The position numbers were made by a program, and so were the translations under genes. A stretch of 64,000 bases of DNA from Candidatus Levybacteria bacterium RIFCSPHIGHO2_02_FULL_40_18 (GTDB lineage Bacteria > Patescibacteriota > Microgenomatia > Levybacterales > GWA1-39-11): assembly GCA_001782235.1 (NCBI GenBank), contig MFOC01000007.1, positions 86,799 to 150,798 of the forward strand, in the 5' to 3' direction. Every line of letters starts with the position of its first letter. Positions within the stretch are counted from its first letter, which is position 1. Under the pieces are notes generated by a model. It was not told the origin of the DNA. It saw nothing but the letters and a program-made list of their open reading frames with translations, and ran no database searches. This document shows, one piece after another, positions 1-57,385 of this stretch.

Positions 1-1501
1 AAACCATCTTTCGGCCCAATTCTATAACTATCTTCTCCTCTCGCATCCTGCTGGAAAACGCGCTCTCAAATATTTAATAGACGAAAGAAAATTGTCCATT
101 CCTTTGATCAAAACTTTCAATTTAGGATATGCACCCGAAAAAGACGCGCTTGTTAGGTATCTGATCGGTAAAAAGAAATACAAAGAAGACGATTTGCTCG
201 TGTCTGGATTAGCGTATCGCACGGGCCGGAATGCCTCCGGCCCTGGAGGGCCTCCGGCCCGGGGGGTTTCGGATTTCTTCCGCGATCGAATTATCTTCCC
301 AATAATTGATCAGAGAGGGAATATAATAGCCTTCTCCGGTAGGTTGCTCGAACCTACCGGCCCTGAGCTTGTCGAACGGGCAGGTGGGAAATACGTTAAT
401 ACCCGTGAAACCCCGGTTTATATTAAAGGCGACACTGTCTATGGATTGAATTTAGCGCGCGACGGGATAAAAAAAGAAGGAAAAGTAATTATTGTTGAAG
501 GGGAATTTGATGTTATAACTGCGCATAAGCAAGGCATTCCAAATATTGTTGCGGTAAAAGGGACCGCACTGACAGAAAATCAGATTAAGCTTCTTAAAAG
601 ATTTGCTCCCAAATTCGCCCTTTGCTTTGATACAGACCCTGCGGGAACCGAGGCACAGAGAAGATCAATTAAAATGATTGAGCGAGAAGGCATTACGGCA
701 ACTGTTATCAGTCTCCAGGGGACTCGTGGTGAGTCTGTCAAACCAAAAGACCCGGACGAACTACTAAATGAAAATCCGATTGCATTTAAAAAGGCGCTTG
801 TAAACGATATTAATATTTATGATTTTATAATTGATACGGCGCTTGGCGAATCGGACTCAAAAACCGCTGAGGGCAAAAAGAGAATACTTGATAGAACCCT
901 TCCTTATTTATCGAATATAGAAAATGATGTGATAAAAGAACACTATCTTAAGAAACTAGCAAATGCCATTGACGCAACTTTGGAAGCAATAATGAAACAG
1001 GCTGATAAAGCTGTGAGGCCTCGATCCGAGACTCCCAAAGCTTCCCCTCGCACGCAGCTGCCGCGCGAGGAACTCGCAGAGATCTATCTTATTTCTTTGA
1101 TTTTCCAATCGGAAAATCCTAAGCAATCTTTAAATTTTGCAAGAACGCTATTGTCAGGGGTCAAACTTTCAACGCCATCAATAGAGAAGCTTCTTTCTTT
1201 TCTTGACACCTATGCTCAAACAGGTGACTTTAATGCGCAAGATTTCTCAAAGTATTTGCCGCACGAATTGCATCTGCCTTTTGATACTTCTTATCTTGCG
1301 TCTATTCCAGAGTTTTTGGACAAAGACCATTTTTATCGCGAACTTGAAAAAGCGGCAAAACAAGTAAGAATTTTGGCAATTAAAAAAACACTTTCAAAAT
1401 TAACAACGCTTATTTCCCAAGCAGAGCAGGAACAGAATAAGGAAAATCTAAAAACTTATCAGGAAAAATTCTCAGAACTCTCAAAACTCCTAGCATCTTG
1501 A
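1..1501 (+). CDS. dnaG: DNA primase DnaG (5' end runs off window start)
   Basis: The reading frame is open from nt 2 upstream of the listed Met. Motifs ...YLIDERKLSIPLIKTFNLGYAP (DnaG linker motif) and Toprim EGEFDVITAHKQGIPNIVAVKGTAL...CFDTDPAG. It is followed by rpoD, the classic dnaG-rpoD arrangement. Confidence 0.9.
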   Translation, partial: NHLSAQFYNYLLLSHPAGKRALKYLIDERKLSIPLIKTFNLGYAPEKDALVRYLIGKKKYKEDDLLVSGLAYRTGRNASGPGGPPARGVSDFFRDRIIFPIIDQRGNIIAFSGRLLEPTGPELVERAGGKYVNTRETPVYIKGDTVYGLNLARDGIKKEGKVIIVEGEFDVITAHKQGIPNIVAVKGTALTENQIKLLKRFAPKFALCFDTDPAGTEAQRRSIKMIEREGITATVISLQGTRGESVKPKDPDELLNENPIAFKKALVNDINIYDFIIDTALGESDSKTAEGKKRILDRTLPYLSNIENDVIKEHYLKKLANAIDATLEAIMKQADKAVRPRSETPKASPRTQLPREELAEIYLISLIFQSENPKQSLNFARTLLSGVKLSTPSIEKLLSFLDTYAQTGDFNAQDFSKYLPHELHLPFDTSYLASIPEFLDKDHFYRELEKAAKQVRILAIKKTLSKLTTLISQAEQEQNKENLKTYQEKFSELSKLLAS

Positions 1502-1609
1502 AGGGTATCACGGGGTGACGCGAAGCAACTTTCAACGTGCGGAAACTGCGGAGCGGCAGGATCCCATGTGGCTTGCGTTCAGGCAGGCTTGAGAGTAAAA
1601 TAATCTCAC

Positions 1610-2716
1610 ATGATAAAAGTTGTAAAATCTAAAAAAATAAAAGTGGCCGGCTCAAAAACTGAAGAAGTGATTGCGATGGCCAAAAAACGCGGCTATATTT
1701 CTCAGGATGAAATTTTGGCCGCATTTCCAAAACCAGAGGATCACATATTAGAGCTTGATCTTCTTTACGATCAGCTACTAAAAAAGGGTGTTGATATATT
1801 TGAGACGGTTGAGGAGGAGAAGGAATCGCAAAAATCAATTGAAGATTTAGAAAGAGAACTTGAGGCCCTCAATATTATTCAAGGCGGTGCAGTAACAGAT
1901 CCTGTAAGGATGTACCTCAAGGAAATAGGCCGCATTCCGCTATTAACTTTTCCTGAAGAGGTGGATCTTGCAAAAAGAATTGAGAAAGGAGATCAAAAAG
2001 CTCGCAAGAAACTAGTCGAATCTAATCTTCGATTGGTAGTTTCAATCGCCAAAAAATATGTAGGGCGTGGAATGACGCTCCTTGATTTAATTCAAGAAGG
2101 CAACCAAGGATTAATTCGCGCGGTTGAAAAGTATGACTGGAAAAAAGGATTTAAGTTCTCGACCTATGCTACTTGGTGGATTCGCCAGGCTATAACCCGG
2201 GCAATTGCCGATCAAGCCAGAACAATTAGAATTCCTGTTCACATGGTTGAAAACATCAATCGCTTTATGAGAGTTCAAAGAAAACTCATGCAGGAATTGG
2301 GGCGCCAGCCAACGCCTGAGGAGATCTCGGAAATTTTGGAAATCGAACCCGATAAGGCTCGTGAAATTATCAAAATTTCCCAACAGCCGGCATCTTTGGA
2401 TACGCCGGTTGGGGATGAGGAGGACTCATATCTTGGCGATTTTATATACGATATCACGGCGCCAACTTTGTTTGATACTGCCGGCAGAACCATGCTTAAA
2501 GACCAACTACATCAAGTTTTGACGACTTTATCGGATCGTGAGAAAAGGGTGCTTGAAGAAAGGTTTGGTCTCCGCGACGGGAAACCAAAAACACTTGAAG
2601 AAGTAGGCCGCATGTTTGCGGTAACCCGCGAAAGAATCCGCCAAATCGAAGCCAAAGCATTAAGAAAACTCCGCCACCCCTCACGAGGCAACAAACTCCG
2701 CGATTATTTAGAATGA
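1610..2716 (+). CDS. rpoD: RNA polymerase primary sigma factor (sigma-70 family, short form)
   Basis: Region 2 ([40 protein letters not shown]), region 3 and region 4 ([15 protein letters not shown]...[30 protein letters not shown]) are all recognisable. Confidence 0.9.
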
Positions 2717-2943
2717 ACCCTCCCCTTACTCCCTCTGTACGTAACGTCGCAGAAGTATTAAGTGGACTAGAGGGAAAAGAGGGATTAGAGGCAAGTGTAA
2801 ACTACATGATTGATCTCCTAACGCGCAGCGGCTATTTGCTTGATCGTCAGATGAACGCGGTTGAGGAAAAACATAGACGTGAAGGTGGATACAATGAAAA
2901 ATTACTCAAAAAGCGTTTAGATTATAAAAATTCTAGACACTAG
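2713..2943 (+). CDS. small hypothetical protein (start overlaps rpoD stop, ATGA)
   Basis: The ORF is translationally coupled to rpoD. No recognisable domain. Confidence 0.3.
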
Positions 2944-2947
2944 TCGG

Positions 2948-2990
2948 GTTGGGAGCATGATATAACAAATGTGGCTGATTTACAAGCGAA
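2948..2990 (-). promoter_or_regulatory. conserved promoter-like element copy A (TTGTAA-17-TATCAT-GCTCCCAACC)
   Basis: One of three copies of the same 45-bp element (see findings). Read on the minus strand. Confidence 0.4.
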
Positions 2991-3004
2991 GTTTGCTTTC
3001 TGGG

Positions 3005-3628
3005 TTAGTCATTTGTCTTTGCAATTACCCTTACCGGAGCAGCGTCAGCTTGGAATTTTGCAGGAAGAGCTATCACTTCAAACTCCCCGGCATTTAATAA
3101 CTGATCAAGATTTGTTAAGTTTTCAAGAATGGTAATGTTATGTCCCAGCAGGATTTTATGAGTAAGCCAGGGCTTATCATAATCCGGCCCGAGCATATCC
3201 ATTCCAACCATTTTTACTTCTAACTCACCCATTCTCGTTGCAAAATCTTCTTTGAGTTCTGGGTAATCCTTAAAGTAATCGCTTGTTCGGTATTTGCTTC
3301 CAAAGCCTGTGAATAAAAGAACTACTGATCCCTTCTCAATTTCAATACCTTCTAATACTGACTCATCAATATTCATTTTCCCCCTAACATCAATTAGCAC
3401 GCCTTTGCCAAAAAAACGCTCTGGGGATATTTCGTCCATTTTCTTACCGCCTTCAATCATATGCAAAGGTGCGTCCATATGCGTCCCTACGTGCATTACG
3501 GAGGTAATTTTATGGTCGTTAAAGGTATCCTTCTCGATATGTGCGACTTGTTCAAGAGTTGCTTTGGGGTCTCCCGGATAAACCGGCATATCAGATGTGA
3601 ATGTGTGTGTAAGATCAATATACTTCAT
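3005..3628 (-). CDS. cyclase-family protein (kynurenine formamidase-like)
   Basis: The HxGTHxDAPxH metal motif (VMHVGTHMDAPLHM) and overall length fit the arylformamidase/cyclase family. Confidence 0.7.
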   Translation of the reverse strand: MKYIDLTHTFTSDMPVYPGDPKATLEQVAHIEKDTFNDHKITSVMHVGTHMDAPLHMIEGGKKMDEISPERFFGKGVLIDVRGKMNIDESVLEGIEIEKGSVVLLFTGFGSKYRTSDYFKDYPELKEDFATRMGELEVKMVGMDMLGPDYDKPWLTHKILLGHNITILENLTNLDQLLNAGEFEVIALPAKFQADAAPVRVIAKTND

Positions 3629-20764: not shown

Positions 20765-22981
20765 TTATAAACAAAAATTTGCCGCAGTATCAATAGGTTT
20801 TCTTCCTCCTGTTCCGAGAGAGGCAAACTCAAAATGAACATGATTACAATTGGGATTGTTTGTACAAATTTTGGCCCCAACATCCCCTGATTTTCCCTCT
20901 GAAGTGCCGCTTCCCTGGTCTACATGATGGAATCTAAGCCAGTAGAGCTTACTGGAAGGGCTTGTTCCTCTATACTCTATTATATAACCGACGCCGCTAT
21001 TAGTCCTATCTTCGGAAAGTAGTATCCAGTCAAGAATCTCCCCATCAATTTTTGGAAAATACACATTTTGCCCAGGAGGGCCGGGTATGTCTTCTGCGTA
21101 GTGTATATCTTCATATATGCATAGTTCGGGCGCAGGATAGTTGAGGCCGCAATGCCCGCATTCGCTTCTTGGTGTGAACTCGCTTCCGCAGGAAACAGTA
21201 GATGCAGTTGCTCCCGGAATCGGGCATGTAGCTGAAAACAATGGCCCTGAGGGTGGTGCAACTTCGATCAGCGCGCCATAAGACCCTGCCGGAACAAGTT
21301 TTTCATACCAAAATCTTATATTCGGAGGGAAGTTTGGATTTTGTGCGAATGTACAAGGCGCATCATGCCCGTCACTGTACCTACACATAAAATCAGCAAA
21401 TCTATCATTTGATAAAAAACCGAAACTAATAAAAACACAAGCGAGGCTTTTATTAATATCATCATTTTGCTGACCCGGTGCGCACCCAAGTGGGTCTGCG
21501 GCAGGCACCCCTTGCGCCCCCGACTCCTCAATCCATAGAGCAAGAAGAAACGCAGGATTCCATCCGTTTGCAACTGCCTGCGACACAATGGTATCCCAAT
21601 TGCCAATCTTTGCATCGGGCCAGTTAGCAGTGATTTGTCCGCGAATATCTTGCGGGATTACGTTTGGGTCACGAAAGGGTATAGAGTAGTTAAGTCCTGC
21701 CGCCTGTTGTCCTCCATCTCCAGGGCCGGTCCCCTGACCCCCTCCTCCCCCGCCTCCAAGACCAAGGCTGGGAGCAAAATTGCCTGGGTTAAATATAATA
21801 ATGAATAATGCAAGAGCAAAAATTACAAGAAGACCAATTCCTGCCCATCCGATAGGCGTGAGTTTTGCGAAAAAGCCAAGCGGCTGTGTTGCTGTTTGTT
21901 CAACTATTCGTCCCGCTGTTTGGACATTGCTTAACAAAGATGGGAGTTTGTTAATCCGATCCACTAAGCCCCTTCCAAGCCTTGATCCCGGAGCGCTTCT
22001 TATAGGCGTAGTGCCTATAGGTTTCTCAAGCGGAATATATAATTTATGGGGAGGGACAGCAGGTTTTATGGCTTCAAGTCTTTTTGTTGCTTCCGAAACC
22101 GATATTTTTGGAGCCTCGCGCTTAGCCTTTTCTACGTACTTTATTTCTTTCCCCGTGCTCTCTTGGAAAGACCGAAGACTTCTTTGAATACTCTCTCTTT
22201 CGACGGTTCTCCGTATATCATTATTGCTTGCTTGGTAAGCGCTAGATTTAGTAGGGTATTGCTTTGCAAACCTATCCCACTCCCGACTCTTGATCTTCTT
22301 TTCAATCTCGTCCCAATTCTCTTCGAGCTTTCCCGCTTCAAAAAGAGCTTTTCTTGCCTTAATGTGCTCGTCTATATTGCTCTTCGCTCGATTAACAGCG
22401 GGATCTTCATCAAGGGTTTTATAAATCTTTTTTGCGCGCTCGTCATAATATGCTGCCCGGCTTTTGTTTTTTTCGCGAAATTGTCTCTCGGCATCGCTAC
22501 GAAGCGTTGGAGCATCTGGGTTGTCCAAATTGCCATAGCGATAATCTAACCATTCGTGGCTCTCAGAGGTCTTCCCGGGATTATTTTTCTGCCACTCTTT
22601 TGCTAAATTCTCCTCTATTTTTTTAAACTTAGGGTCATCCTCCAATAGATCTGGCCGCCGCCGGATAAAGAAAAGAGGAGACGCTAGAAGTCCTGCAAAA
22701 TTTGCAAAACCCCCCTGCCCTCGAGCGGTTTCTTGTGGAGCTTCAGGTTCTTGCGTGGGTATTGTTGAAATAGCCTCAAGGATTTGACTTCCTATCCAAA
22801 TACGTTCTAGTTTGTTTGGATCAACGCTCAGGTCATTTGCGCGAAGATATGCCGCCAGTTCTGCGCGAGTTTTAAAAGGAGGTACGCGGTTTTCTTTTAG
22901 ATACTCATTTGTTTCTATTGCATAGCTTTGAGCGCGCTCACGGTTATTCTTTATAAATTTTGAAATATTGTCCATTGGCAA
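20765..22981 (-). CDS. membrane-anchored cell-wall hydrolase (SLT-like + M23-like motifs), VirB1-analogue candidate
   Basis: About 360-aa cytoplasmic charged N-terminal region, one TM (GWAGIGLLVIFALALFIIIF), a Gly-rich linker, then NGWNPAFLLALWIEESGAQG (lytic-transglycosylase-like E-S), then ...LRFHHVDQGSG...NCNHVHFEFAS (M23 HxxxD / HxH-like). Confidence 0.5.
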   Translation of the reverse strand: MPMDNISKFIKNNRERAQSYAIETNEYLKENRVPPFKTRAELAAYLRANDLSVDPNKLERIWIGSQILEAISTIPTQEPEAPQETARGQGGFANFAGLLASPLFFIRRRPDLLEDDPKFKKIEENLAKEWQKNNPGKTSESHEWLDYRYGNLDNPDAPTLRSDAERQFREKNKSRAAYYDERAKKIYKTLDEDPAVNRAKSNIDEHIKARKALFEAGKLEENWDEIEKKIKSREWDRFAKQYPTKSSAYQASNNDIRRTVERESIQRSLRSFQESTGKEIKYVEKAKREAPKISVSEATKRLEAIKPAVPPHKLYIPLEKPIGTTPIRSAPGSRLGRGLVDRINKLPSLLSNVQTAGRIVEQTATQPLGFFAKLTPIGWAGIGLLVIFALALFIIIFNPGNFAPSLGLGGGGGGGQGTGPGDGGQQAAGLNYSIPFRDPNVIPQDIRGQITANWPDAKIGNWDTIVSQAVANGWNPAFLLALWIEESGAQGVPAADPLGCAPGQQNDDINKSLACVFISFGFLSNDRFADFMCRYSDGHDAPCTFAQNPNFPPNIRFWYEKLVPAGSYGALIEVAPPSGPLFSATCPIPGATASTVSCGSEFTPRSECGHCGLNYPAPELCIYEDIHYAEDIPGPPGQNVYFPKIDGEILDWILLSEDRTNSGVGYIIEYRGTSPSSKLYWLRFHHVDQGSGTSEGKSGDVGAKICTNNPNCNHVHFEFASLGTGGRKPIDTAANFCL

Positions 22982-41335: not shown

Positions 41336-41344
41336 AATTGATTT

Positions 41345-41495
41345 TAGTATTTAGAAATTGGTTTTTGGACAATAGAAATTAGTAATAGAAAATAGAGAAT
41401 AGAAAATAGAAACAAATACTATTCTCCAAGTTCAAATTTCCATAACCATTTTCCAATTTCTTACAACTATTTTCTAATAAGTCTATTTTTAGTAT
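41345..41495. repeat. palindromic intergenic element (family copy 6)
   Basis: AGAAATTAGTAATAGAAAATAGAGAATAGAAAATAG is near-identical to the copy 3 core. Right arm ...CCATAACCATTTTCCAATTTCTTACAACTATTTTCTAAT. Confidence 0.6.
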
Positions 41496-41719
41496 GGGCT
41501 AAAAATATCGTAAATGTCAAATAGTTGGCTTGACCCCGCTAATCTTACCGTTCGCCTTTTTCCCGCCGATATTTTTCGGTCGGGATCCCGCACGAATGTA
41601 ATTCGTCGGGACAGTACTATTCGTACACGGCTCACGGAGCGATTTTAGAGGTGTCTTCTGTCGCTACGCTTCTTGACAATTGGTGTGGTTGGGGTTATTA
41701 TTATCAAAATCTTCATTAA

Positions 41720-42334
41720 ATGAAAAAAGTTGTCTTGGGATTACTGCTCCTGGCCCTCTTTTATTTAAGTACTCCTTCAAAAACACTTGCCCAAACTAAG
41801 CCTATACTTTCTCCTTCGCCCACGGAAGCCCTCATGTCAGAAGATAAACAAATGGAGAAAGAAAAAGAAGCCACGCAAAGTTCGCAGCCTGAGATAGATG
41901 AGTACCCGTTGCCCTATCCTGGAATCTTACCTGACAATCCGTTGCATTTTCTAAAGGCTCTCCGAGACAGGATAATTTTAATGCTAATGTCAGATCCTGT
42001 AAAAGAAGCGGAGTTTAATCTTTTAACATCGGACAAAAGAATTTATGCGGCACAACTTTTAGCAGACAAGGGAAAAGGACAACTTTCAATTTCAACTCTT
42101 TCAAAAAGCAATAACTATTTCCATAATGCAGTATCAAGCGCCGGGGAAGCCAAAAAGATGGGGAAAGATATTGATACAGTTTTACATAATATGAAAAAGT
42201 CTATTGTTAAACACCAACTGGTGCTGCCTATGATGGAGAATGTGCTCTCAAAAGACTTTGCAAGCCAGCTTCGGGCAGAGGGTGCGAGAATGGTAGAATT
42301 TGAAAGATCCGTAGATAGCCTTATCCTGCAGTAA
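41720..42334 (+). CDS. hypothetical secreted protein
   Basis: Signal peptide MKKVVLGLLLLALFYLSTPSKTLAQ. A consensus promoter TTGACA-17-TATTAT lies about 35 nt upstream. Confidence 0.5.
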   Translation: MKKVVLGLLLLALFYLSTPSKTLAQTKPILSPSPTEALMSEDKQMEKEKEATQSSQPEIDEYPLPYPGILPDNPLHFLKALRDRIILMLMSDPVKEAEFNLLTSDKRIYAAQLLADKGKGQLSISTLSKSNNYFHNAVSSAGEAKKMGKDIDTVLHNMKKSIVKHQLVLPMMENVLSKDFASQLRAEGARMVEFERSVDSLILQ

Positions 42335-42483
42335 CAATCTAATTCCCTAGTTAGATCATTTTTTTTACACACAAAAACAAAGTGCCCAACTAATTTTTTC
42401 GTCCCATCCGCCAACCGGCGGACTATTACCGCAAAACGAGGCTAAAACATCGATTGCCATAGTTTGATATACAACTTGATAGT

Positions 42484-42535
42484 TGACACGGCTGATATAG
42501 TGTTCTACTATTTTAGTTGACACTATATCTAGTAG
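42484..42535 (+). promoter_or_regulatory. nrdR-nrdJ promoter (TTGACA-17-TACTAT) with NrdR-box-like palindromes
   Basis: ACACTATATCTAGTAG (42520-42535) matches the NrdR box consensus acaCwAtATaTwGtgt. A half-box ...GATATAGTGT lies at 42494-42503. The repeat TAGTTGACAC appears twice. Confidence 0.45.
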
Positions 42536-42565
42536 TTTGCACCTTGAACAACCAGCCCAATTAAG

Positions 42566-42700
42566 CAGAAAATAGTTAATAGATAATAGAAAATAGTAAT
42601 GGAAGTTGGAAAATAGAAAATAGATTAAATACCAATTTCTAATATCTAATTTCCATAACTAATATCTAATTTCTAACAACTAATTTCTGTAATTTAGAAT
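42566..42700. repeat. palindromic intergenic element (family copy 7) forming the nrdR 5' leader
   Basis: GAAAATAGTTAATAGATAATAGAAAATAGTAATGGAAGTTGGAAAATAGAAAATAG ... CCAATTTCTAATATCTAATTTCCATAACTAATATCTAATTTCTAACAACTAATTTC. Confidence 0.6.
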
Positions 42701-42706
42701 TTAATT

Positions 42707-43156
42707 ATGCAGTGTCCTTATTGTAAAAGTGAAGATTCTGAAGTTGTTGAAACAAGGGTCTCGGATGATGGAACAAATATAAGGCGCAGAAGAAATTGCC
42801 TTTCATGCGGCAAGCGTTATACAACTTACGAGCGGATAGAAAACATCACTCTTATTGTCAAGAAAAAGGACGGAAGGCGCGAGCAATTTGATCGAGAGAA
42901 ACTTCGGCAAGGACTCATGAAAGCCTGCGAGAAGACAACGGTGTCACTTGATGCGATTAATAATATAGTAGACGAGGTTGAAAGAGAGTTAATATCTGGC
43001 GAGTCGGTTGAAATAGAAGCAAAGAAAATTGGTCAGATGGTTGCTCAAAAACTTAAGAAGCTTGACAAAGTAGCATACATAAGGTTTTCAAGCGTCTTCA
43101 AGAGATTCGTAGATCTTGAGGACTTTGAGAAAGAATTAAAAAAACTTATCAAATAA
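42707..43156 (+). CDS. nrdR: transcriptional repressor NrdR
   Basis: MQCPYCKSEDSEVVETRVSDDGTNIRRRRNCLSCGKRYTTYE zinc ribbon plus ATP-cone. Confidence 0.9.
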   Translation: MQCPYCKSEDSEVVETRVSDDGTNIRRRRNCLSCGKRYTTYERIENITLIVKKKDGRREQFDREKLRQGLMKACEKTTVSLDAINNIVDEVERELISGESVEIEAKKIGQMVAQKLKKLDKVAYIRFSSVFKRFVDLEDFEKELKKLIK

Positions 43157-45689: not shown

Positions 45690-45840
45690 TAGTTTCAAAT
45701 AAGAGTATATATTTGGTAATCGCCGTGAAAGTCGGCGGAACTGCCGGTACTGTAATATCCAGAAAACAATATATACTTTCATCCCCGAGCAGGGTTAAGC
45801 GAAGAAGAATTCCTCTCGGGTTATCGAGAGGTTTTTTTGT
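45690..45840 (+). promoter_or_regulatory. cobalamin-riboswitch-like leader plus intrinsic terminator upstream of the PduO adenosyltransferase gene
   Basis: GGTAATCGCCGTGAAAGTCGGCGGAACTGCCGGTACTGTAAT resembles the AdoCbl aptamer core (GGGAAGCCGGTGAAAATCCGGCGCGGTCCCGCCACTGTAA, from memory). It is followed by the hairpin CCTCTCGGGTTATCGAGAGG plus T7. Confidence 0.45.
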
Positions 45841-48461: not shown

Positions 48462-48499
48462 CTTACAAACGCTGCTTCGTGCGAAGCCGCGTTTGACGC

Positions 48500-48854
48500 G
48501 GTGGAGATGGGGGGCTTTGAGCCCCCGTCCAAAAAAGCATCTATAAAAACATCTACAAGCTTATTCAATTATTTATTGTCATCATGCAAACTCCAATTGA
48601 AAGGATTGAACATGACTAAGATTTAAATTGTTCGAACAAAATCTAAATCGGAACTTTGTCTATATCCAAACTTTGTTTATGCCCATATCTGATCGTTTGG
48701 AAAAATCTAGATATGAACACCAGTTTAAGCTACTGCGTAGCTGTAGGCCGGACTAACATTTCTGTTAGCATTTATTTTTGATACATTTTTACGATTAGTA
48801 TCATTATCGGCTTGCAGTTTTTAAAGAGCAATTCTGTCGATGCAATGCATCCCC
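48500..48854 (-). ncRNA. ssrA: tmRNA (ssrA)
   Basis: Minus-strand 5' GGGGATG... pairs with 3' ...CATCTCC-A-CC (tRNA-like acceptor, one G·U). T-arm GGGGG-CTCAAAG-CCCCC. Internal tag ORF with resume codon GCT: A-NRNVSPAYSYAVA-stop(TAA). Located directly downstream of smpB on the same strand. Confidence 0.75.
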
Positions 48855-52328: not shown

Positions 52329-54053
52329 TTATTGGCGTTCTACATTGAATAGTGGACCGACGATTTGAATATTTGCCGGGGCTCTGAGATTAAACCAGTT
52401 TTTAAATTCATCACCTGAAAAACTTTGTGATCCGCCGTCCCCCAAGATACCTACAGAAGTTGTTCGGCCAGCCGAAAAATCTGCTCCAATAGAAACGTCT
52501 GAGATATTTGAAAAAGGAGTTACTCCTCGATTTGAGAGCTCTTGCCGAACGCGAGCTTCATCCCATGTATCGGTACCCGCAGGATTTGGCTTATCAGTTT
52601 GATAAAGATGCTCTCCAGCGGATGAGTCAGCTTTTGCAAGCAAGATCACATTCATAATGTCTGCTACTTCAGAAGATTTAAGCCAGGCGGTTTTATTATA
52701 CTCTGATCGAGACCCCCAATCGCAATAAAACCACGGAGATTCGCGATCATAGGCATTTGAAAAAAGATCAGAGAATCCCGAGGCCGCGCCTGTTGTTGTA
52801 TCTATTGCATGTTTTGTCCAAGAGGTCGCGCTCCAGCCTGGAAGTTCTGACGTCGATAAAATATATCCGCCGTGAGTTGAAGAGTACCAAGCCTTAATTG
52901 GCGATCCGCCCTGAACCATGACCCAGCCGCGCGTGCTGTTCACTGCCTCTTCCCATGCGCCGCCTTTAGGTTCGGGTTTAAAGACCTGACAGGATTGAGT
53001 GGTGCAAATAGATCCCGCTCCATTGTTTGTATAAGAAAGAGCATAGGAGCGAGCGGCCACAGCCTGAGCTTTTAAGGCTTCCATTGCAAATGATGAAGGC
53101 ATTTCATAAATTCTTTTTACGTACTCCTCGATATTATAAGAGCCGTATCCCTCAACATTAATATTTATATCTTGGGAGTAATCTTTTTTCAGTTCGTAAT
53201 TTACATAATATGCTTCAAGGATTTGTTCTGCAGACTGTCCGGCGCGGGCTCTTCCGTCCGCTCCATATTGATTAAGACCGGTTCTGTTTGGGACGCCGTA
53301 GGTGAAGAAGGCGATTCTGGGAGAAAATCCCGGATCGCGGGTTCTATCATCAACACAGGCAGGAGCCGCGGTCGCGGCAGATCTTGGAATGTTTAATGCG
53401 GCAAGCCTTTGACCTAAAATTTCTTTTTGGCGGGCAGATAACTTTGCAATTTCACTTGACAATGTTGCTTGATATGCTTTTGCGCCCTTTACAACTTTTT
53501 CGATTTCTCCCTTTTCCTGTGCAAGCCTTTCTTTAATGCTCGCAAATTTTATTTCTTCCTCTTCAAGTTTTGCTTTTCGCGTTTCAAGATCAACAATCTT
53601 TAATGCAATGGAGGTTATCGTTTCTTTATCGCGGTCAGCATCTCTTTTTTGATAAATAATGATTCGAGTCATTTCAGCAGCATCTGCCTGGGAAATAAAG
53701 ACGAGAAGAGGGGAGAGAAAATAGCTTTTTATGTAGTAGTCGCGGACGGTTTTATTAAAAATAATTTTACTCTCTTCAAGCTCTTGATAGCCTTGTTCAA
53801 TGAATTTCTTCTTTTCTGCCAAATCGCGCTCAATTGCGGCAACCTGATTTTCTATACCTGTAAGTTGTTTTTGCAAGCTATTAAGTTGTGATTCAAGGGG
53901 TGCCGTTGCTTTTTGAGAGGCAGAAAGCGCTGCCTGAAGTTCGGTCAGTTTTTTATTGATATCGTCAAGCTCATCAGAGAAAACTTGAGGAACAACAAAA
54001 AGTTTGAACGCGAACAAAATACCCACAAGGAGGAGCAAGAAAAATCTTCCCAT
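52329..54053 (-). CDS. SpoIID/LytB-domain protein with N-terminal coiled-coil (EnvC-like) region
   Basis: Signal/TM N-terminus and a long Gln/Glu/Leu coiled coil. The C-terminal ...AWYSSTHGGYILSTSE... resembles the SpoIID YHSxxGG motif. Confidence 0.5.
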   Translation of the reverse strand: MGRFFLLLLVGILFAFKLFVVPQVFSDELDDINKKLTELQAALSASQKATAPLESQLNSLQKQLTGIENQVAAIERDLAEKKKFIEQGYQELEESKIIFNKTVRDYYIKSYFLSPLLVFISQADAAEMTRIIIYQKRDADRDKETITSIALKIVDLETRKAKLEEEEIKFASIKERLAQEKGEIEKVVKGAKAYQATLSSEIAKLSARQKEILGQRLAALNIPRSAATAAPACVDDRTRDPGFSPRIAFFTYGVPNRTGLNQYGADGRARAGQSAEQILEAYYVNYELKKDYSQDININVEGYGSYNIEEYVKRIYEMPSSFAMEALKAQAVAARSYALSYTNNGAGSICTTQSCQVFKPEPKGGAWEEAVNSTRGWVMVQGGSPIKAWYSSTHGGYILSTSELPGWSATSWTKHAIDTTTGAASGFSDLFSNAYDRESPWFYCDWGSRSEYNKTAWLKSSEVADIMNVILLAKADSSAGEHLYQTDKPNPAGTDTWDEARVRQELSNRGVTPFSNISDVSIGADFSAGRTTSVGILGDGGSQSFSGDEFKNWFNLRAPANIQIVGPLFNVERQ

Positions 54054-54198
54054 CGGAAATTCTATTATAGCAGATGTTATAGGTGCGAGAGAATTATGGG
54101 TGCGCTTGGATTCGAACCCCGTACAAAACTTACTTGTTCCCGAGGCTTACAGCCTCGCGTCACAAGAGCGTTTCTACGGGGCAAGCCAAAGACATCTG

Positions 54199-54269
54199 TA
54201 GGCCCGGAAGGAGTCGGACCTTCGTGTCGACTTTATAAGAGTCGTGTCCTACCGTTGAACGACGGGCCT
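54199..54269 (-). tRNA. probable tRNA-Ile (anticodon TAT); atypical T-loop TCCGACT (C55)
   Basis: Hand fold. Acceptor AGGCCCG/CGGGCCT (7/7), D-arm GTTC-AACGGTA-GGAC, anticodon stem CGACT/AGTCG with loop CTTATAA, variable ACAC, T-arm GAAGG-TCCGACT-CCTTC, discriminator A. Length 71 nt. Confidence 0.5.
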
Positions 54270-54371
54270 AAAAATTTCTAAAACGCTTGCTTATTATACC
54301 AATACTGGGGTTAAACTTGAAGCCGACAAGTGGTTATACCTTAATACTTTATACTTGATACTGAATACTTA

Positions 54372-56789
54372 CTAAATGGAGCCGCCAGGTCCGAGCCTTC
54401 CTTCTGGGCCTTTGTCAACGCTTGATTGAATATCGCCAAGCACTTCGTATAATCGCGATCTCTTAGCAATTTCTGCCTCAACCAATTCTTTTTGTTTTCC
54501 GTATTTGAGTCTTGATAATTCTCTAATTAATTCTGCGACTCTTGGATTTTCAAGCTTTTTCTCGGCAACCAAATCTCGAGTTAAGTCCAATGAAAATGGC
54601 GTGGTAGGCTCAGAATTAATCAGAGTTTTTACGTATGCATGGAATCTTTCAACATTAATTAAATCCGCTTCGTTAAACACCGGTTGAAATTCATGTTGCA
54701 GGTAATTTGCATCAGAAACTCCTACCCGAAATGAAATTAATGTTCCGACATTTCCAAAGATTGCGTTTTTAACATCCTCCTCAATTTGACCGATAAACTG
54801 GTTCGCAACCGTTAGGTTTAATCTATATTTTCGGGCCTCTGACAAAATTTGTCCAAAATCGGGAGTCGCAAAATTCTGAAACTCATCAACGTAAAGATAG
54901 AAATCCCTACGTTGGTCTTGCGGCACATCTTGCCTTGACATTGCTGCGGCAAGAATTTTTGGAACCAAAATTAAACCCAAGAAGGAGGAATTATCTTCTC
55001 CAATTTTTCCTTTGGCAAGAGAGATAAGTAAAATCTTTCCCTGGTCCATAACTTCTCGCAGTGAAAATGCGCTTTTTGATTGCCCTATGATATTTCTCAT
55101 CATGCGGTTTGTGACAAAGCGGCCGAATTTTGAAACTATATAATCCAACACCTCAGACTTATGAAAATCTGAGGTTTGCGCAATCTGATCAGTCCAGTAG
55201 CGGCGAACAATTGGATCTTGAACTTTCGGCAAGAGCTCCTGCACAAAGGAAGAATCGGTTAGGACTCGGACAACCTCAACAAAAGTATTCCCCGGCTCTG
55301 ACATAACAGTGTACATGGCATTTCTTATAGCATGCTCAAAACGCGGTCCAATAATGCCAGTTTTATTAGGATCATATAATTTGTACATAAGTCCTATTAT
55401 TGACGTAATTATTAGGTCTTTTTGCTCTTCGGTTTGAACGTCCAACATGTTTAGTCCCATTGGGCGTTCCGTGTCTCCCGGATCAAAAAGAATTACGTCT
55501 TCTGCGCGCTCCGGAGGAATGAGAGGCAAGAGCATATCGATTGTGTCATGAGGATCAATAAAACAAACTCCATATCCAGCGCGAATGTCTTGTAAGATCA
55601 TGTCTTTTAAAAATTCTGATTTTCCTACGCCTGTCTTACCTATAATATACATATGACGGCGTCTGTCATCCTCCCCGATATAAACAGGCCGCGAGATCCC
55701 GCGATAAATGCTTTTCCCAGTGTATAATCCGGCGGAAGGAATATTTGCGGGTGCAGGCGCGACTCGGGCACCTAGCCAATGGATAGCAGGTGTCTCAACC
55801 GTTTTATTTGGAAAATGAAAAATTGTTGCAAGTTCATCTGTTGTTAAAACTCCGGGGTTGTTTGGCACAAGCGGAAGTTGACGATAGATAAAATCAATCA
55901 TTGCCATTCCCTTAAACAATCTATGCTTCACTTTTTCAAAGGAGTTAAAAGAAGAGAACTGTGAGAATGAGCCCACAATATTTGTAAGATGTGCTTCTGC
56001 GGATTCCTTTGTTGAAGAAGCAGTAAGGATTCTAACATGCGTTTCAAATCCGGGCTTTGTAATCTTTTGCTCAATTGCCTCAAGTTCTTTTTGATCAACC
56101 GAGTATTTTGCAGTTTCAGGATTCGCCTCTCTCTTTTTAGTGGTTGTAATGTATGATCGGCCGCTTTTTTTCCAAGCGTCGCCGGTAAGGGTTATCAAAA
56201 TTTGTAAAGCCGCAGCTTCTCCTTCCTGCATTTTTCCTAATGTGCTTGTAATTGATGAAAGAGGATCAACCGGAAGATCCTTATAGGTTTTTATTGGAAG
56301 ATAATGAGCTTTTGAGAGCTTTAGTTGTGCGTAGGCGATTTTACCTGGATTTTCAAAAAGATTATATTCTTCAACCTGAAGAATCTGCGCGTCTGGATAG
56401 CTTCCATGAATCTGCTTTTCAACCATGTCGCGAAGCCTATTTGGCACGCCAACATAAAATCTTATATCTTGAGGTTTTGCGACTATTTCAAAAGATATAA
56501 TGTCGGGAACTTTAAGAAATCCAAAAATTCCCTTAGTTCCTGCGATTGAAGTAAGACCTGAGAATAATTGATCTGCAGCGTCTATTTTTATCTCGTTTTC
56601 GCGTGGGAGTGATACCTCAAGAAGAGATGAGTCAAGAGCCTTCTCGTGTCTTTCTTGGGATTTTCGCCAAAACCCTAATGCCAAAAAAATCCCTAACAGG
56701 CACGCAATAACTACGGATGCCATTAAAAAGGCTAGGAGAAAAACAAAGACTAGATTAATAATGGCTTGCGAAAAAGCATCAAGCTGCAC
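54372..56789 (-). CDS. VirD4/TraG/TraD-like type IV coupling protein (FtsK/HerA-fold ATPase)
   Basis: N-terminal TM helices, Walker A MYIIGKTGVGKSEF and Walker B FYLYVDEFQNFATP. About 800 aa, typical of T4CPs. Confidence 0.65.
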   Translation of the reverse strand: MQLDAFSQAIINLVFVFLLAFLMASVVIACLLGIFLALGFWRKSQERHEKALDSSLLEVSLPRENEIKIDAADQLFSGLTSIAGTKGIFGFLKVPDIISFEIVAKPQDIRFYVGVPNRLRDMVEKQIHGSYPDAQILQVEEYNLFENPGKIAYAQLKLSKAHYLPIKTYKDLPVDPLSSITSTLGKMQEGEAAALQILITLTGDAWKKSGRSYITTTKKREANPETAKYSVDQKELEAIEQKITKPGFETHVRILTASSTKESAEAHLTNIVGSFSQFSSFNSFEKVKHRLFKGMAMIDFIYRQLPLVPNNPGVLTTDELATIFHFPNKTVETPAIHWLGARVAPAPANIPSAGLYTGKSIYRGISRPVYIGEDDRRRHMYIIGKTGVGKSEFLKDMILQDIRAGYGVCFIDPHDTIDMLLPLIPPERAEDVILFDPGDTERPMGLNMLDVQTEEQKDLIITSIIGLMYKLYDPNKTGIIGPRFEHAIRNAMYTVMSEPGNTFVEVVRVLTDSSFVQELLPKVQDPIVRRYWTDQIAQTSDFHKSEVLDYIVSKFGRFVTNRMMRNIIGQSKSAFSLREVMDQGKILLISLAKGKIGEDNSSFLGLILVPKILAAAMSRQDVPQDQRRDFYLYVDEFQNFATPDFGQILSEARKYRLNLTVANQFIGQIEEDVKNAIFGNVGTLISFRVGVSDANYLQHEFQPVFNEADLINVERFHAYVKTLINSEPTTPFSLDLTRDLVAEKKLENPRVAELIRELSRLKYGKQKELVEAEIAKRSRLYEVLGDIQSSVDKGPEGRLGPGGSI

Positions 56790-57197: not shown

Positions 57198-57281
57198 CGG
57201 AGGGTGTGGGAGTCGAACCCACTAGCCCCTTGCGGGGCGTGGTTTAGCAAACCACTCTCGTGACCGTCTGAGTCACCCTCC
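57198..57281 (-). tRNA. tRNA-Ser (anticodon GCT)
   Basis: Acceptor GGAGGGT/ACCCTCC, anticodon stem GTGGT/ACCAC with loop TTGCTAA, long variable arm GCCCCGCAAGGGGCT, T-arm GTGGG-TTCGACT-CCCAC. Length 84 nt. Confidence 0.85.
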
Positions 57282-57300: not shown

Positions 57301-57385
57301 CGGAGGGTACAGGATTCGAACCTGTGAAGGGATTGCTCCCTCGAGTTTTCAAGACTCGCGCAATTGGCCTCTATGCGAACCCTCC
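57301..57385 (-). tRNA. tRNA-Ser (anticodon TGA)
   Basis: Acceptor GGAGGGT/ACCCTCC, anticodon stem CGAGT/ACTCG with loop CTTGAAA, long variable arm AGGGAGCAATCCCTT, T-arm ACAGG-TTCGAAT-CCTGT. Length 85 nt. Confidence 0.85.

Follow-up and report, generated by a model that had tools for sequence, protein, structure and literature searches.

What is the tRNA-like sequence that adjoins an intact tRNA gene in a genome of Candidatus Levybacteria (Patescibacteria, or Candidate Phyla Radiation (CPR)), and from what does it derive? In the 64-kb stretch of DNA analysed here (hereafter the window), the minus strand from 54197 to 54097 carries an element with a T-loop and a 3′ acceptor strand, located just downstream of a gene for tRNA-Ile with the anticodon UAU. 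We consider it probable that the element is a pseudogene of this lineage's former AUA-reading tRNA-Ile(UAU), together with the leader of that gene, left by xenologous replacement by a foreign, phage-like gene. Most likely, it is a relic without a function of its own.

Beginning 8 nucleotides (nt) past the end of the live tRNA (54199), the minus strand from 54190 to 54097 reads TTTGGCTTGCCCCGTAGAAACGCTCTTGTGACGCGAGGCTGTAAGCCTCGGGAACAAGTAAGTTTTGTACGGGGTTCGAATCCAAGCGCACCCA. The features that an earlier note had described from the letters are present: a helix formed by CCCCGTA (54181..54175) and TACGGGG (54123..54117), an arm resembling the anticodon arm of a tRNA-Tyr (CGAGG-CTGTAAG-CCTCG, 54157..54141), the T-loop GGTTCGAATCC (54118..54108) and the 3′ acceptor strand with its discriminator, CGCACCC-A (54104..54097). 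The 5′ acceptor partner GGGTGCG is missing, as the same note had pointed out. There is no local copy, and the count in 64 kb is at chance level (3 versus 2.5 expected); one of the copies is the complement of the element itself, and those at 21481 and 42280 were rejected as the missing 5′ half given that their surroundings are not tRNA-like.

The helix belongs to a long imperfect hairpin (54117..54181, minus strand) that extends across the spacer and the pseudogene and carries the Tyr-like arm at its tip. The predicted free energy (dG) of the 70-nt core (54186..54117) is −35.2, with a z score of −5.3, which is far stabler than chance, and a 108-nt stretch reaches a z score of −4.2 relative to shuffled sequence. 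No second copy of the hairpin or of the Tyr-like arm exists in the window or in 169 related loci. Nine exact matches in the viral contigs of IMG/VR were dismissed as copies, given that they lie in unrelated, mostly coding contexts and that none is within a tRNA.

Despite these features, the element is no tRNA. Searched sensitively with RF00005, 53950-54400 gave no match to it at E ≤ 10 (the family threshold is 29 bits), and ARAGORN made no call down to 80% thresholds, whether introns were allowed or not. There is no 7-bp acceptor stem, since four of the seven pairs are non-standard in the covariance model (CM) alignment described below. Likewise, the T-loop UUCGAAU is intact, but the T-stem strands CGGGG and CCAAG are unpaired at two of five positions, and a proper T-arm is therefore not formed. 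A real tRNA-Tyr of non-canonical form, or a tRNA that is split or permuted, could be imagined from the perfect 5-bp arm, the CUGUAAG loop, the canonical T-loop and the discriminator A. We give this idea virtually no chance, considering the silence of both searches, the mismatched T-stem, an acceptor 5′ strand that is nowhere in the window, and an 'anticodon arm' that maps by homology to the leader and acceptor region of a tRNA-Ile. The conjecture in the earlier note that this is a degenerate, non-functional tRNA relic, which keeps its T-loop and 3′ acceptor without a 5′ partner, thus agrees with the tRNA-model searches and with the homology to tRNA-Ile(UAU), as does the view that it records a past rearrangement of a tRNA gene.

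The source of the relic becomes apparent when the same intergenic slot is viewed in relatives. With the SpoIID-like protein as the anchor, 80 GTDB loci, 80 metagenome loci and several more found by exact protein look-up were compared, and these are designated here by L numbers. The anchor gene of the window (SpoIID/LytB domain by Pfam; 52329..54053, minus strand) encodes a protein identical to proteins on Candidatus Levybacteria contigs, such as one in GCA_001782345.1. A gene resembling that of a type IV coupling protein (T4CP-like; DUF8128, TraG-D_C and TrwB_AAD_bind by Pfam; 54372..56789, minus strand, its place also being evident from synteny) is located directly upstream of SpoIID in 24 loci, 20 of which are non-identical. 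The gap between the two genes holds exactly one called tRNA-Ile(UAU) in all 20, oriented as in the window in 12 and inverted in 8. The SpoIID proteins of these syntenic loci are 55–86% identical to that of the window, and the gaps of L085, L086 and L088 were inspected in detail. Four same-species contigs (L001-L004) are 100% identical to the window across 13.7 kb, and thus they are uninformative on constraint.

In L085, the closest relative (SpoIID 86% identical), the gap contains one canonical tRNA-Ile(UAU), GGGCATGTAGCTCAGCGGTAGTAGCGCTAACCTTATAAGTTAGATGTCCTTGGTTCGAATCCAAGCATGCCCA, which ends in ...AGATGTCCTTGGTTCGAATCCAAGCATGCCCA. This 'type A' allele is also found in L086, L087, L027, L041, L099 and L145. 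When the element and its downstream sequence are aligned locally with the L085 tRNA and trailer, the z score is 8.3 and none of 300 shuffles does as well. The alignment spans an anticodon-loop remnant (TAAGTT), the T-loop, the 3′ strand, the shared trailer and the SpoIID promoter, and the 15-mer GGTTCGAATCCAAGC of the relic is identical in L085 and L087, both of type A. The 5′ part of the relic (54197..54148) aligns instead with the leader and first tRNA-Ile bases of L088 (SpoIID 82% identical; z = 4.9, 2 of 500 shuffles as good). A clade covariance model (R1), built from 17 clade tRNA-Ile alleles and giving native alleles 80–90 bits, covers its positions 1–72 on 54156..54097 as GAGGCUGUA, 21 nt and UUGUACGGGGUUCGAAUCCAAGCGCACCCA, with the acceptor and T-stem pairs broken.

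On the basis of R1 and the L085 alignment, the pseudo-tRNA-Ile(UAU) comprises GAGGCTGTA, 21 nt and TTGTACGGGGTTCGAATCCAAGCGCACCCA (54097..54156, minus strand). It has kept the T-loop, the 3′ strands of the T-stem and acceptor stem and the discriminator A, and has lost the 5′ strands of both stems, the D-arm and the anticodon arm. It is preceded by the spacer CAGATGTCTTTGGCTTGCCCCGTAGAAACGCTCTTGTGACGC (54157..54198, minus strand), an old leader homologous to that located 5′ of tRNA-Ile in L088. By both position and sequence, the relic is orthologous to the tRNA-Ile(UAU) genes of relatives: it occupies the slot of a functional tRNA gene, it still shows significant resemblance to that gene and its flanks, and its function is served by an intact gene 8 nt upstream, all of which are marks of a pseudogene. 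Going by these alignments, the 'Tyr anticodon arm' is evidently the end of the leader joined to the acceptor and U8-A9 region, and caps the hairpin that the old leader makes with the decayed body. The Tyr ancestry suggested by the earlier note thus gives way to descent from tRNA-Ile(UAU), the isotype of the neighbouring gene.

That neighbour is a real, well-formed tRNA-Ile with the anticodon TAT, as had been recognised from the letters. The gene is 71 nt long (54199..54269, minus strand; called by ARAGORN at 54198-54269, anticodon tat) and scores 57.7 bits with RF00005 (threshold 29). Its sequence, AGGCCCGTCGTTCAACGGTAGGACACGACTCTTATAAAGTCGACACGAAGGTCCGACTCCTTCCGGGCCTA, has an A1-U72 pair and a 4-nt variable loop, and its cloverleaf appears in the minimum free energy fold of a 203-nt precursor. 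AUA makes up 25% of the Ile codons in six neighbouring genes, and therefore an AUA decoder must be kept; ARAGORN found no other candidate for this task in the window. The isotype is not rare in the clade, contrary to what was first supposed, since one is present in 20 of 20 syntenic relatives.

However common its isotype, the live gene is an outlier allele. R1 assigns it 61.6 bits, compared with 80–90 for native alleles, and it shares 43–51 of 71 positions (61–72% identity) with the clade alleles, all of which possess a GTAGCTCAG D-arm that the live gene is missing. The lineage-specific sequence is restricted to about 165 nt around the live tRNA. Upstream of it, the resident promoter of the tRNA-Ile cassette, CTTCAAGTTTAACCCCAGTATTGGTATAAT (54293..54322, minus strand), is orthologous to the promoters 5′ of the relatives' tRNA-Ile(UAU) genes, and it aligns with L085 and L086 up to TATAATAAG, after which the sequences diverge. 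A generic sigma-70 scan did not call this promoter, and so its assignment rests on conservation and on an extended −10 motif. Between promoter and tRNA is the leader AAGCAAGCGTTTTAGAAATTTTT (54270..54292, minus strand), which is specific to the live tRNA and absent from relatives. It is predicted to pair with sequence just 3′ of the tRNA (GCAAGC/GCUUGC, AGA/UCU and AUUU/AGAU).

We infer that this outlier is of foreign, probably phage, origin from a scan of IMG/VR with exact words of the live tRNA, in which the best matches located are tRNA-Ile(UAU) genes of phage arrays. The 17-mer of the T-arm occurs in 25 IMG/VR contigs, mostly inside tRNAs of large arrays, and the carriers include the tRNA-Ile(UAU) genes of L175, L182 and L193. 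The 17-mer of the anticodon arm occurs in 17 contigs, and the tRNA-Ile(UAU) genes of L205, L206, L208, L212, L215, L216 and L220 match the live gene at 22 of 26 aligned positions 5′ of this seed. One of these contigs, L206, does come from a tailed phage, with PHROGs for ribonucleotide reductase and tail fibre, and a large open reading frame (ORF) on it has no match in INPHARED. Control words from native alleles give 0, 4, 14 and 9 viral matches, some of them in viral tRNA-Ile genes, and none has a flank like that of the native alleles. Because both words and flanks match in viral contigs, while the controls show no such flanks, the live gene belongs to a sequence family seen in phage tRNA arrays.

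Two further observations concern these viral tRNAs. The 137-kb IMG/VR contig L182 carries tRNA-Ile(UAU), tRNA-Ser(GCU) and tRNA-Ser(UGA) side by side, which are the three isoacceptors of the window locus, and its Ile gene has a T-arm as in the live gene of the window. The C55 that had been singled out in the live tRNA is real (T-loop UCCGACU). It is not a peculiarity of this gene, since about 20 phage-array tRNAs of several isotypes with the T-arm GAAGGTCCGACTCCTTC (viral loci L170-L194) carry C55, as do the native alleles of L086 and L027 (GGTCCGAATCC), which read GGTCCGA... at the T-loop.

These observations are best joined in the following series of events. A foreign phage-type tRNA-Ile(UAU) would have been placed between the resident promoter and the resident leader and gene, either through recombination between cassettes that share the conserved promoter or as what was left of an element that disrupted the host tRNA and brought its own. 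With two redundant AUA decoders in tandem, the downstream copy would have been freed from selection to decay. In the old gene, deletion or replacement would have removed the D-arm and anticodon region, and substitutions would have broken the pairing of the acceptor stem and T-stem, whereas the T-loop, the 3′ acceptor strand and the trailer would have stayed recognisable. The decayed body, being complementary to the old leader by chance or by later change, would then form the long hairpin whose tip mimics a Tyr anticodon arm. We infer this order, a tandem stage and then decay, and L088 provides a suggestive hint of it. Its leader reads TATAATAT-GGCCGTCG-ATGCTTTTTTGGGCTTGCCC in the 2821-2832 region, with the junction GGCCGTCG|ATGC, and it may consist of the first 8–9 nt of the phage-like tRNA of the window (GGCCCGTCG) fused to the spacer at GATG, as would be expected of the vestige of a reciprocal copy deleted there. 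Similar vestiges were sought in the leaders of L012, L009, L031 and L341, where global alignments are too noisy to interpret.

Several points weigh against this account and should be borne in mind. The R1 score of the relic is weak (8.9 bits, with a rough E value of about 0.04 in 601 nt), and the middle 21–40 nt are without confident assignment. Decay is uneven, in that of the 22 nt at the 3′ end, 19 agree with the corresponding end in L085, whereas the 5′ half is unrecognisable; together with the extra-stable hairpin, this could mean selection or a template switch rather than neutral decay. An intact tandem of the two genes was found in no genome. That the live gene came from a phage was deduced only from word-seeded searches of a viral collection, and INPHARED phages have no match to the live tRNA. 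Moreover, three partly conflicting decompositions fit the relic: colinear decay, a 66–69-nt insertion at G53/T54 of a type-A remnant, and nested remnants.

The choice among these decompositions does not affect the pseudogene call. Directly after the live tRNA, the 12 nt AGATGTCTTTGG agree with type-A positions 41–53 at 11 of 12 and still pair with CCAAG, and on this basis a split type-A remnant is one alternative. Its strict form holds that a 66–69-nt palindrome was inserted at the T-loop (G53/T54) of a truncated type-A tRNA-Ile, giving AGATGTCTTTGG, insert and TTCGAATCCAAGCGCACCCA in succession. The junction ...TTGG|CTTGCCC... is also present in L088, which accords with an insertion but favours a shared, older layered structure over a private event. 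We regard this insertion as unlikely, given that the supposed insert is colinear with the L088 leader and tRNA start (the alignment with z = 4.9), that the CM aligns its 3′ part as tRNA body, and that the L085 alignment extends upstream of the T-loop through TAAGTT..TTGTACGGGG. In addition, no other copy of the palindrome occurs in the window, in the 169 related loci or in viral tRNA contexts. The middle 21 nt of the relic are closer to the reverse complement of the leader (about 77%) than the tRNA interior is, and a template switch could therefore have sharpened the hairpin.

The window relic is one instance of fast turnover at this slot. Among relatives whose SpoIID proteins are 73–86% identical, at least four unrelated alleles are found (types A, B, D and that of L005). 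L089 and L342 (SpoIID 92% identical) have different alleles in opposite orientations, whereas L012 and L088 (SpoIID 64% identical) have identical tRNAs; pairwise tRNA identities by end-gap-free alignment are unreliable for a few pairs, such as L001 versus L089 and L341, and the identities given above for the live gene come from another comparison. In L087, a decayed type-B gene comes after a live one of type A. Five loci (L026, L029, L032, L036 and L043) have an inverted tRNA-Ile(UAU) with, in the orientation of that gene, a copy of its first 17–18 nt upstream and one to three copies of the tRNA 3′ half (positions 33/37-75) downstream of the full gene; in L036 the 3′ half-copies are in tandem, each preceded by the same trailer. 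Three tandem 37-nt repeats upstream of tRNA-Ile(UAU) in L145 (2350-2470) each consist of tRNA positions 1–9 (GGGCATGTA) and leader.

Some additional features of the slot are worth recording. The cassette of promoter and tRNA-Ile is inverted between genomes with SpoIID proteins 90–92% identical (L007 versus L009, L089 versus L342, and L090/L091), which points to recent inversion or re-insertion. In the group with 3′ half-copies, leader and trailer form a long helix that encloses the full gene, and its pairs have changed in a compensatory manner from genome to genome. Leaders of 'type B' tRNA-Ile genes (L088 2839-2849, and L012, L009 and L031) and the window spacer (54187-54178) contain a mini-hairpin, GGGCTTGCCC or GGGTTTACCC, wherein a C-G to T-A change parallels the acceptor-stem difference between allele types; the clade CM reads this mini-hairpin as an acceptor stem with the entire interior deleted. 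L005 (SpoIID 81% identical) has 3 kb with three ORFs (125, 239 and 497 amino acids) between tRNA-Ile(UAU) and SpoIID (220-3180). This insert was rejected as an intact element, since neither Pfam nor PHROG gives a match and its far end bears no tRNA remnant.

Downstream of the relic, the trailer shared with L085 (54054..54096, minus strand; the L085 alignment runs through it) includes the SpoIID promoter. The extended −10 box TGCTATAAT at 54072..54064 (minus strand), which relatives keep as TTGTTATAATAGAATCTCCGATG, ends 10 nt before the ATG, itself also conserved, and the 5′ untranslated region of SpoIID must thus be very short or absent. An older tRNA 3′ end may survive in the trailer as AATTCTCTCGCACCTA (54095..54080), as tentatively judged from a match by eye to the tRNA 3′ end of L031 at 13 of 16 positions.

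Two other explanations accept the tRNA-Ile(UAU) ancestry or part of it, and differ in how the relic arose or in what it does. The relic could be the scar of an integrative element or temperate phage that entered the resident tRNA-Ile(UAU), did not restore this gene and carried a tRNA-Ile(UAU) of its own, and that was later lost except for this indispensable tRNA. This concerns the route of replacement rather than the identity of the relic, and it is a minority possibility that we nonetheless take seriously. A phage-like live tRNA of the same isotype adjoins a broken host tRNA, although the origin of the former from an element is conjectural. The apparent breakpoints, one immediately past the anticodon arm on its 3′ side (position about 40/41) and one at G53/T54, are reportedly classic integrase sublocations in tRNA genes (Williams 2002). 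In L026, L032, L036 and L043, the full tRNA is flanked by a fragment of its 5′ part on one side and a copy of its 3′ half on the other, and the occurrence of the cassette in either orientation and the disagreement between alleles and SpoIID similarity (L089/L342, L012/L088) also speak for this route. Furthermore, a mechanism of this kind is documented in mycobacteriophages (PMC10865867). Set against this, no integrase, prophage gene or attachment (att) direct repeat was found at the locus, in the window or in the 20 relatives examined, the junction in the window shows no recognisable core, and the 3-kb insert of L005 offers neither a domain match nor a far-end remnant. In addition, the live gene sits on the resident promoter only 8–41 nt from the relic, and hence the element must have been lost almost completely and with precision. 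The att-site remnant proposed in the earlier note may at most apply to the relic itself, as the scar of an integration that broke the old tRNA, and not as the att site of an island that carries the T4CP-like gene. A broader and still less probable conjecture is that the tRNA-Ile(UAU) of Levybacteria is a recurrent target of phages or integrative elements that break the gene and leave their own copy, forming a replacement ratchet. If true, it explains the unrelated alleles in either orientation among close relatives, the nested 5′ and 3′ half-copies and tandem fragments around the gene, and the dependence on a phage-type C55 tRNA beside a decaying native relic. As a variant, turnover of the slot may reflect an arms race with tRNA-targeting nucleases.

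The other explanation is that the hairpin and tRNA-like 3′ end constitute a functional RNA, such as a trailer that directs how the live tRNA-Ile transcript is processed, terminated or stabilised, or a decoy that resembles a tRNA. The fold is far stabler than shuffles (z scores of −5.3 and −4.4), the T-loop and 3′ strand are better kept than the remainder, and relatives' tRNA-Ile genes are flanked by leader-trailer helices with compensatory changes. Even so, we judge a function of this type to be improbable. The hairpin has no homologue in the 169 related loci, consensus scans for a promoter or terminator role of the element were negative, with no U-tract and no terminator call, and all available copies are 100% identical and come from one species, and so give no sign of conservation. 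Decay of a replaced gene thus remains our preferred reading of the relic.

A different reading in the earlier note was that the element and a pair of tRNA-Ser genes are the two ends of a mobile element carrying the VirD4/T4CP-like gene. The pair itself is genuine, tRNA-Ser(UGA) being located at 57385..57301 and tRNA-Ser(GCU) at 57281..57198 (both minus strand), and the latter scores 39.1 bits (threshold 29) in a sensitive search. This second gene has G rather than U at position 8 and was missed by ARAGORN and default Rfam, and relatives carry the same Ser(UGA)/Ser(GCU) pair, in many cases about 3 kb upstream. It is true that tRNA genes flank the T4CP-like gene and that a tRNA 3′ fragment is present, but we consider an island bounded by these tRNAs very unlikely. 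The order of tRNA-Ser pair, T4CP-like (DUF8128) gene, tRNA-Ile(UAU) and SpoIID is conserved across relatives at 55–86% SpoIID identity, which indicates that the T4CP-like gene is a conserved neighbour and not recent island cargo. The GC (guanine plus cytosine) content is flat across the region. Pfam reveals no integrase-type or relaxase domain in the nine ORFs between 49.5 and 60 kb, and no integrase-type domain in the called genes of L001-L004. The element or tRNA 3′ end has no direct repeat in the window longer than 11 nt, the 11-nt matches being T-loops of other tRNAs, and no repeat of the fragment exists near the tRNA-Ser genes. Finally, the fragment derives from tRNA-Ile and not tRNA-Ser. 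A far-end direct repeat, an adjacent integrase and a segment absent from relatives, by which an att site is known, are therefore all lacking.

For annotation, these results mean that the stretch should be recorded as a tRNA-Ile pseudogene rather than as a tRNA-Tyr, an att site or an island boundary, and the T4CP-like gene as a conserved gene of Levybacteria. If the replacement occurred as proposed, the relic serves to date a recent event in which a reduced CPR genome exchanged an essential and probably single-copy decoder gene for an allele of foreign, phage-like type. Taken as a whole, the loci compared here indicate that turnover in this one intergenic slot is unusually fast. If phages disable the host tRNA and substitute their own, tRNA-dependent lysogeny would extend beyond actinobacteriophages, and a phage-driven exchange would show how phage tRNAs become domesticated.

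Elsewhere in the window, AT-rich repeats of the AGAAAATAG type at 41339-42709 enclose about 1.1 kb as inverted arms of 57 nt that are 75% complementary, and direct copies of them are separated by 1.2 kb. A transfer-messenger RNA (tmRNA) gene at 48499-48854 (minus strand; 130 bits) adjoins smpB, and an AdoCbl-II riboswitch at 45704-45777 (plus strand) is located near a gene with a Cob_adeno_trans domain (a Pfam tag on the locus copies L001-L004).

Pseudogenes of tRNAs and remnants of tRNA 3′ ends are, as such, well known. Like bacterial examples of these, the relic is a partial, non-folding copy beside an intact gene of the same isotype, with its T-loop and 3′ acceptor strand kept. Unlike the 3′-end remnants that flank islands, it retains an old leader and a decayed body, and no element separates it from the live gene, which is only 8 nt away. 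It also differs from the rebuilt hybrid tRNAs of integration sites, since the live gene here is a divergent allele. A closer parallel is tRNA-dependent lysogeny, in which a host tRNA is inactivated and the phage tRNA of the same isotype becomes indispensable, as documented for actinobacteriophages at tRNA-Lys and other tRNAs (Guerrero-Bustamante & Hatfull 2024, PMC10865867). In the window, too, the host tRNA is broken and its work is done by an isotype-matched tRNA of phage type, but no prophage, integrase or short common core was found, and only the tRNA would survive, on a host promoter. Phage tRNA arrays, such as those whose tRNAs evade tRNA-targeting defences (PMC10264068), contain tRNAs that match the D-arm, anticodon arm and T-arm of the live allele, whereas the live gene itself is chromosomal and solitary within a conserved host locus. 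Finally, unmodified tRNA-Ile(UAU) reads AUA in bacteria that lack TilS, such as Mycoplasma mobile (Taniguchi et al. 2013, PMC3575796). A UAU anticodon is likewise shared by the live gene and every allele of relatives, and AUA is frequent here, although the phylum is another and a C55 T-loop is no feature described for that organism. Among bacteria without TilS, tRNA-Ile(UAU) as an AUA decoder is documented in a few (PMC3575796), whereas here an entire CPR clade has it as a rule.

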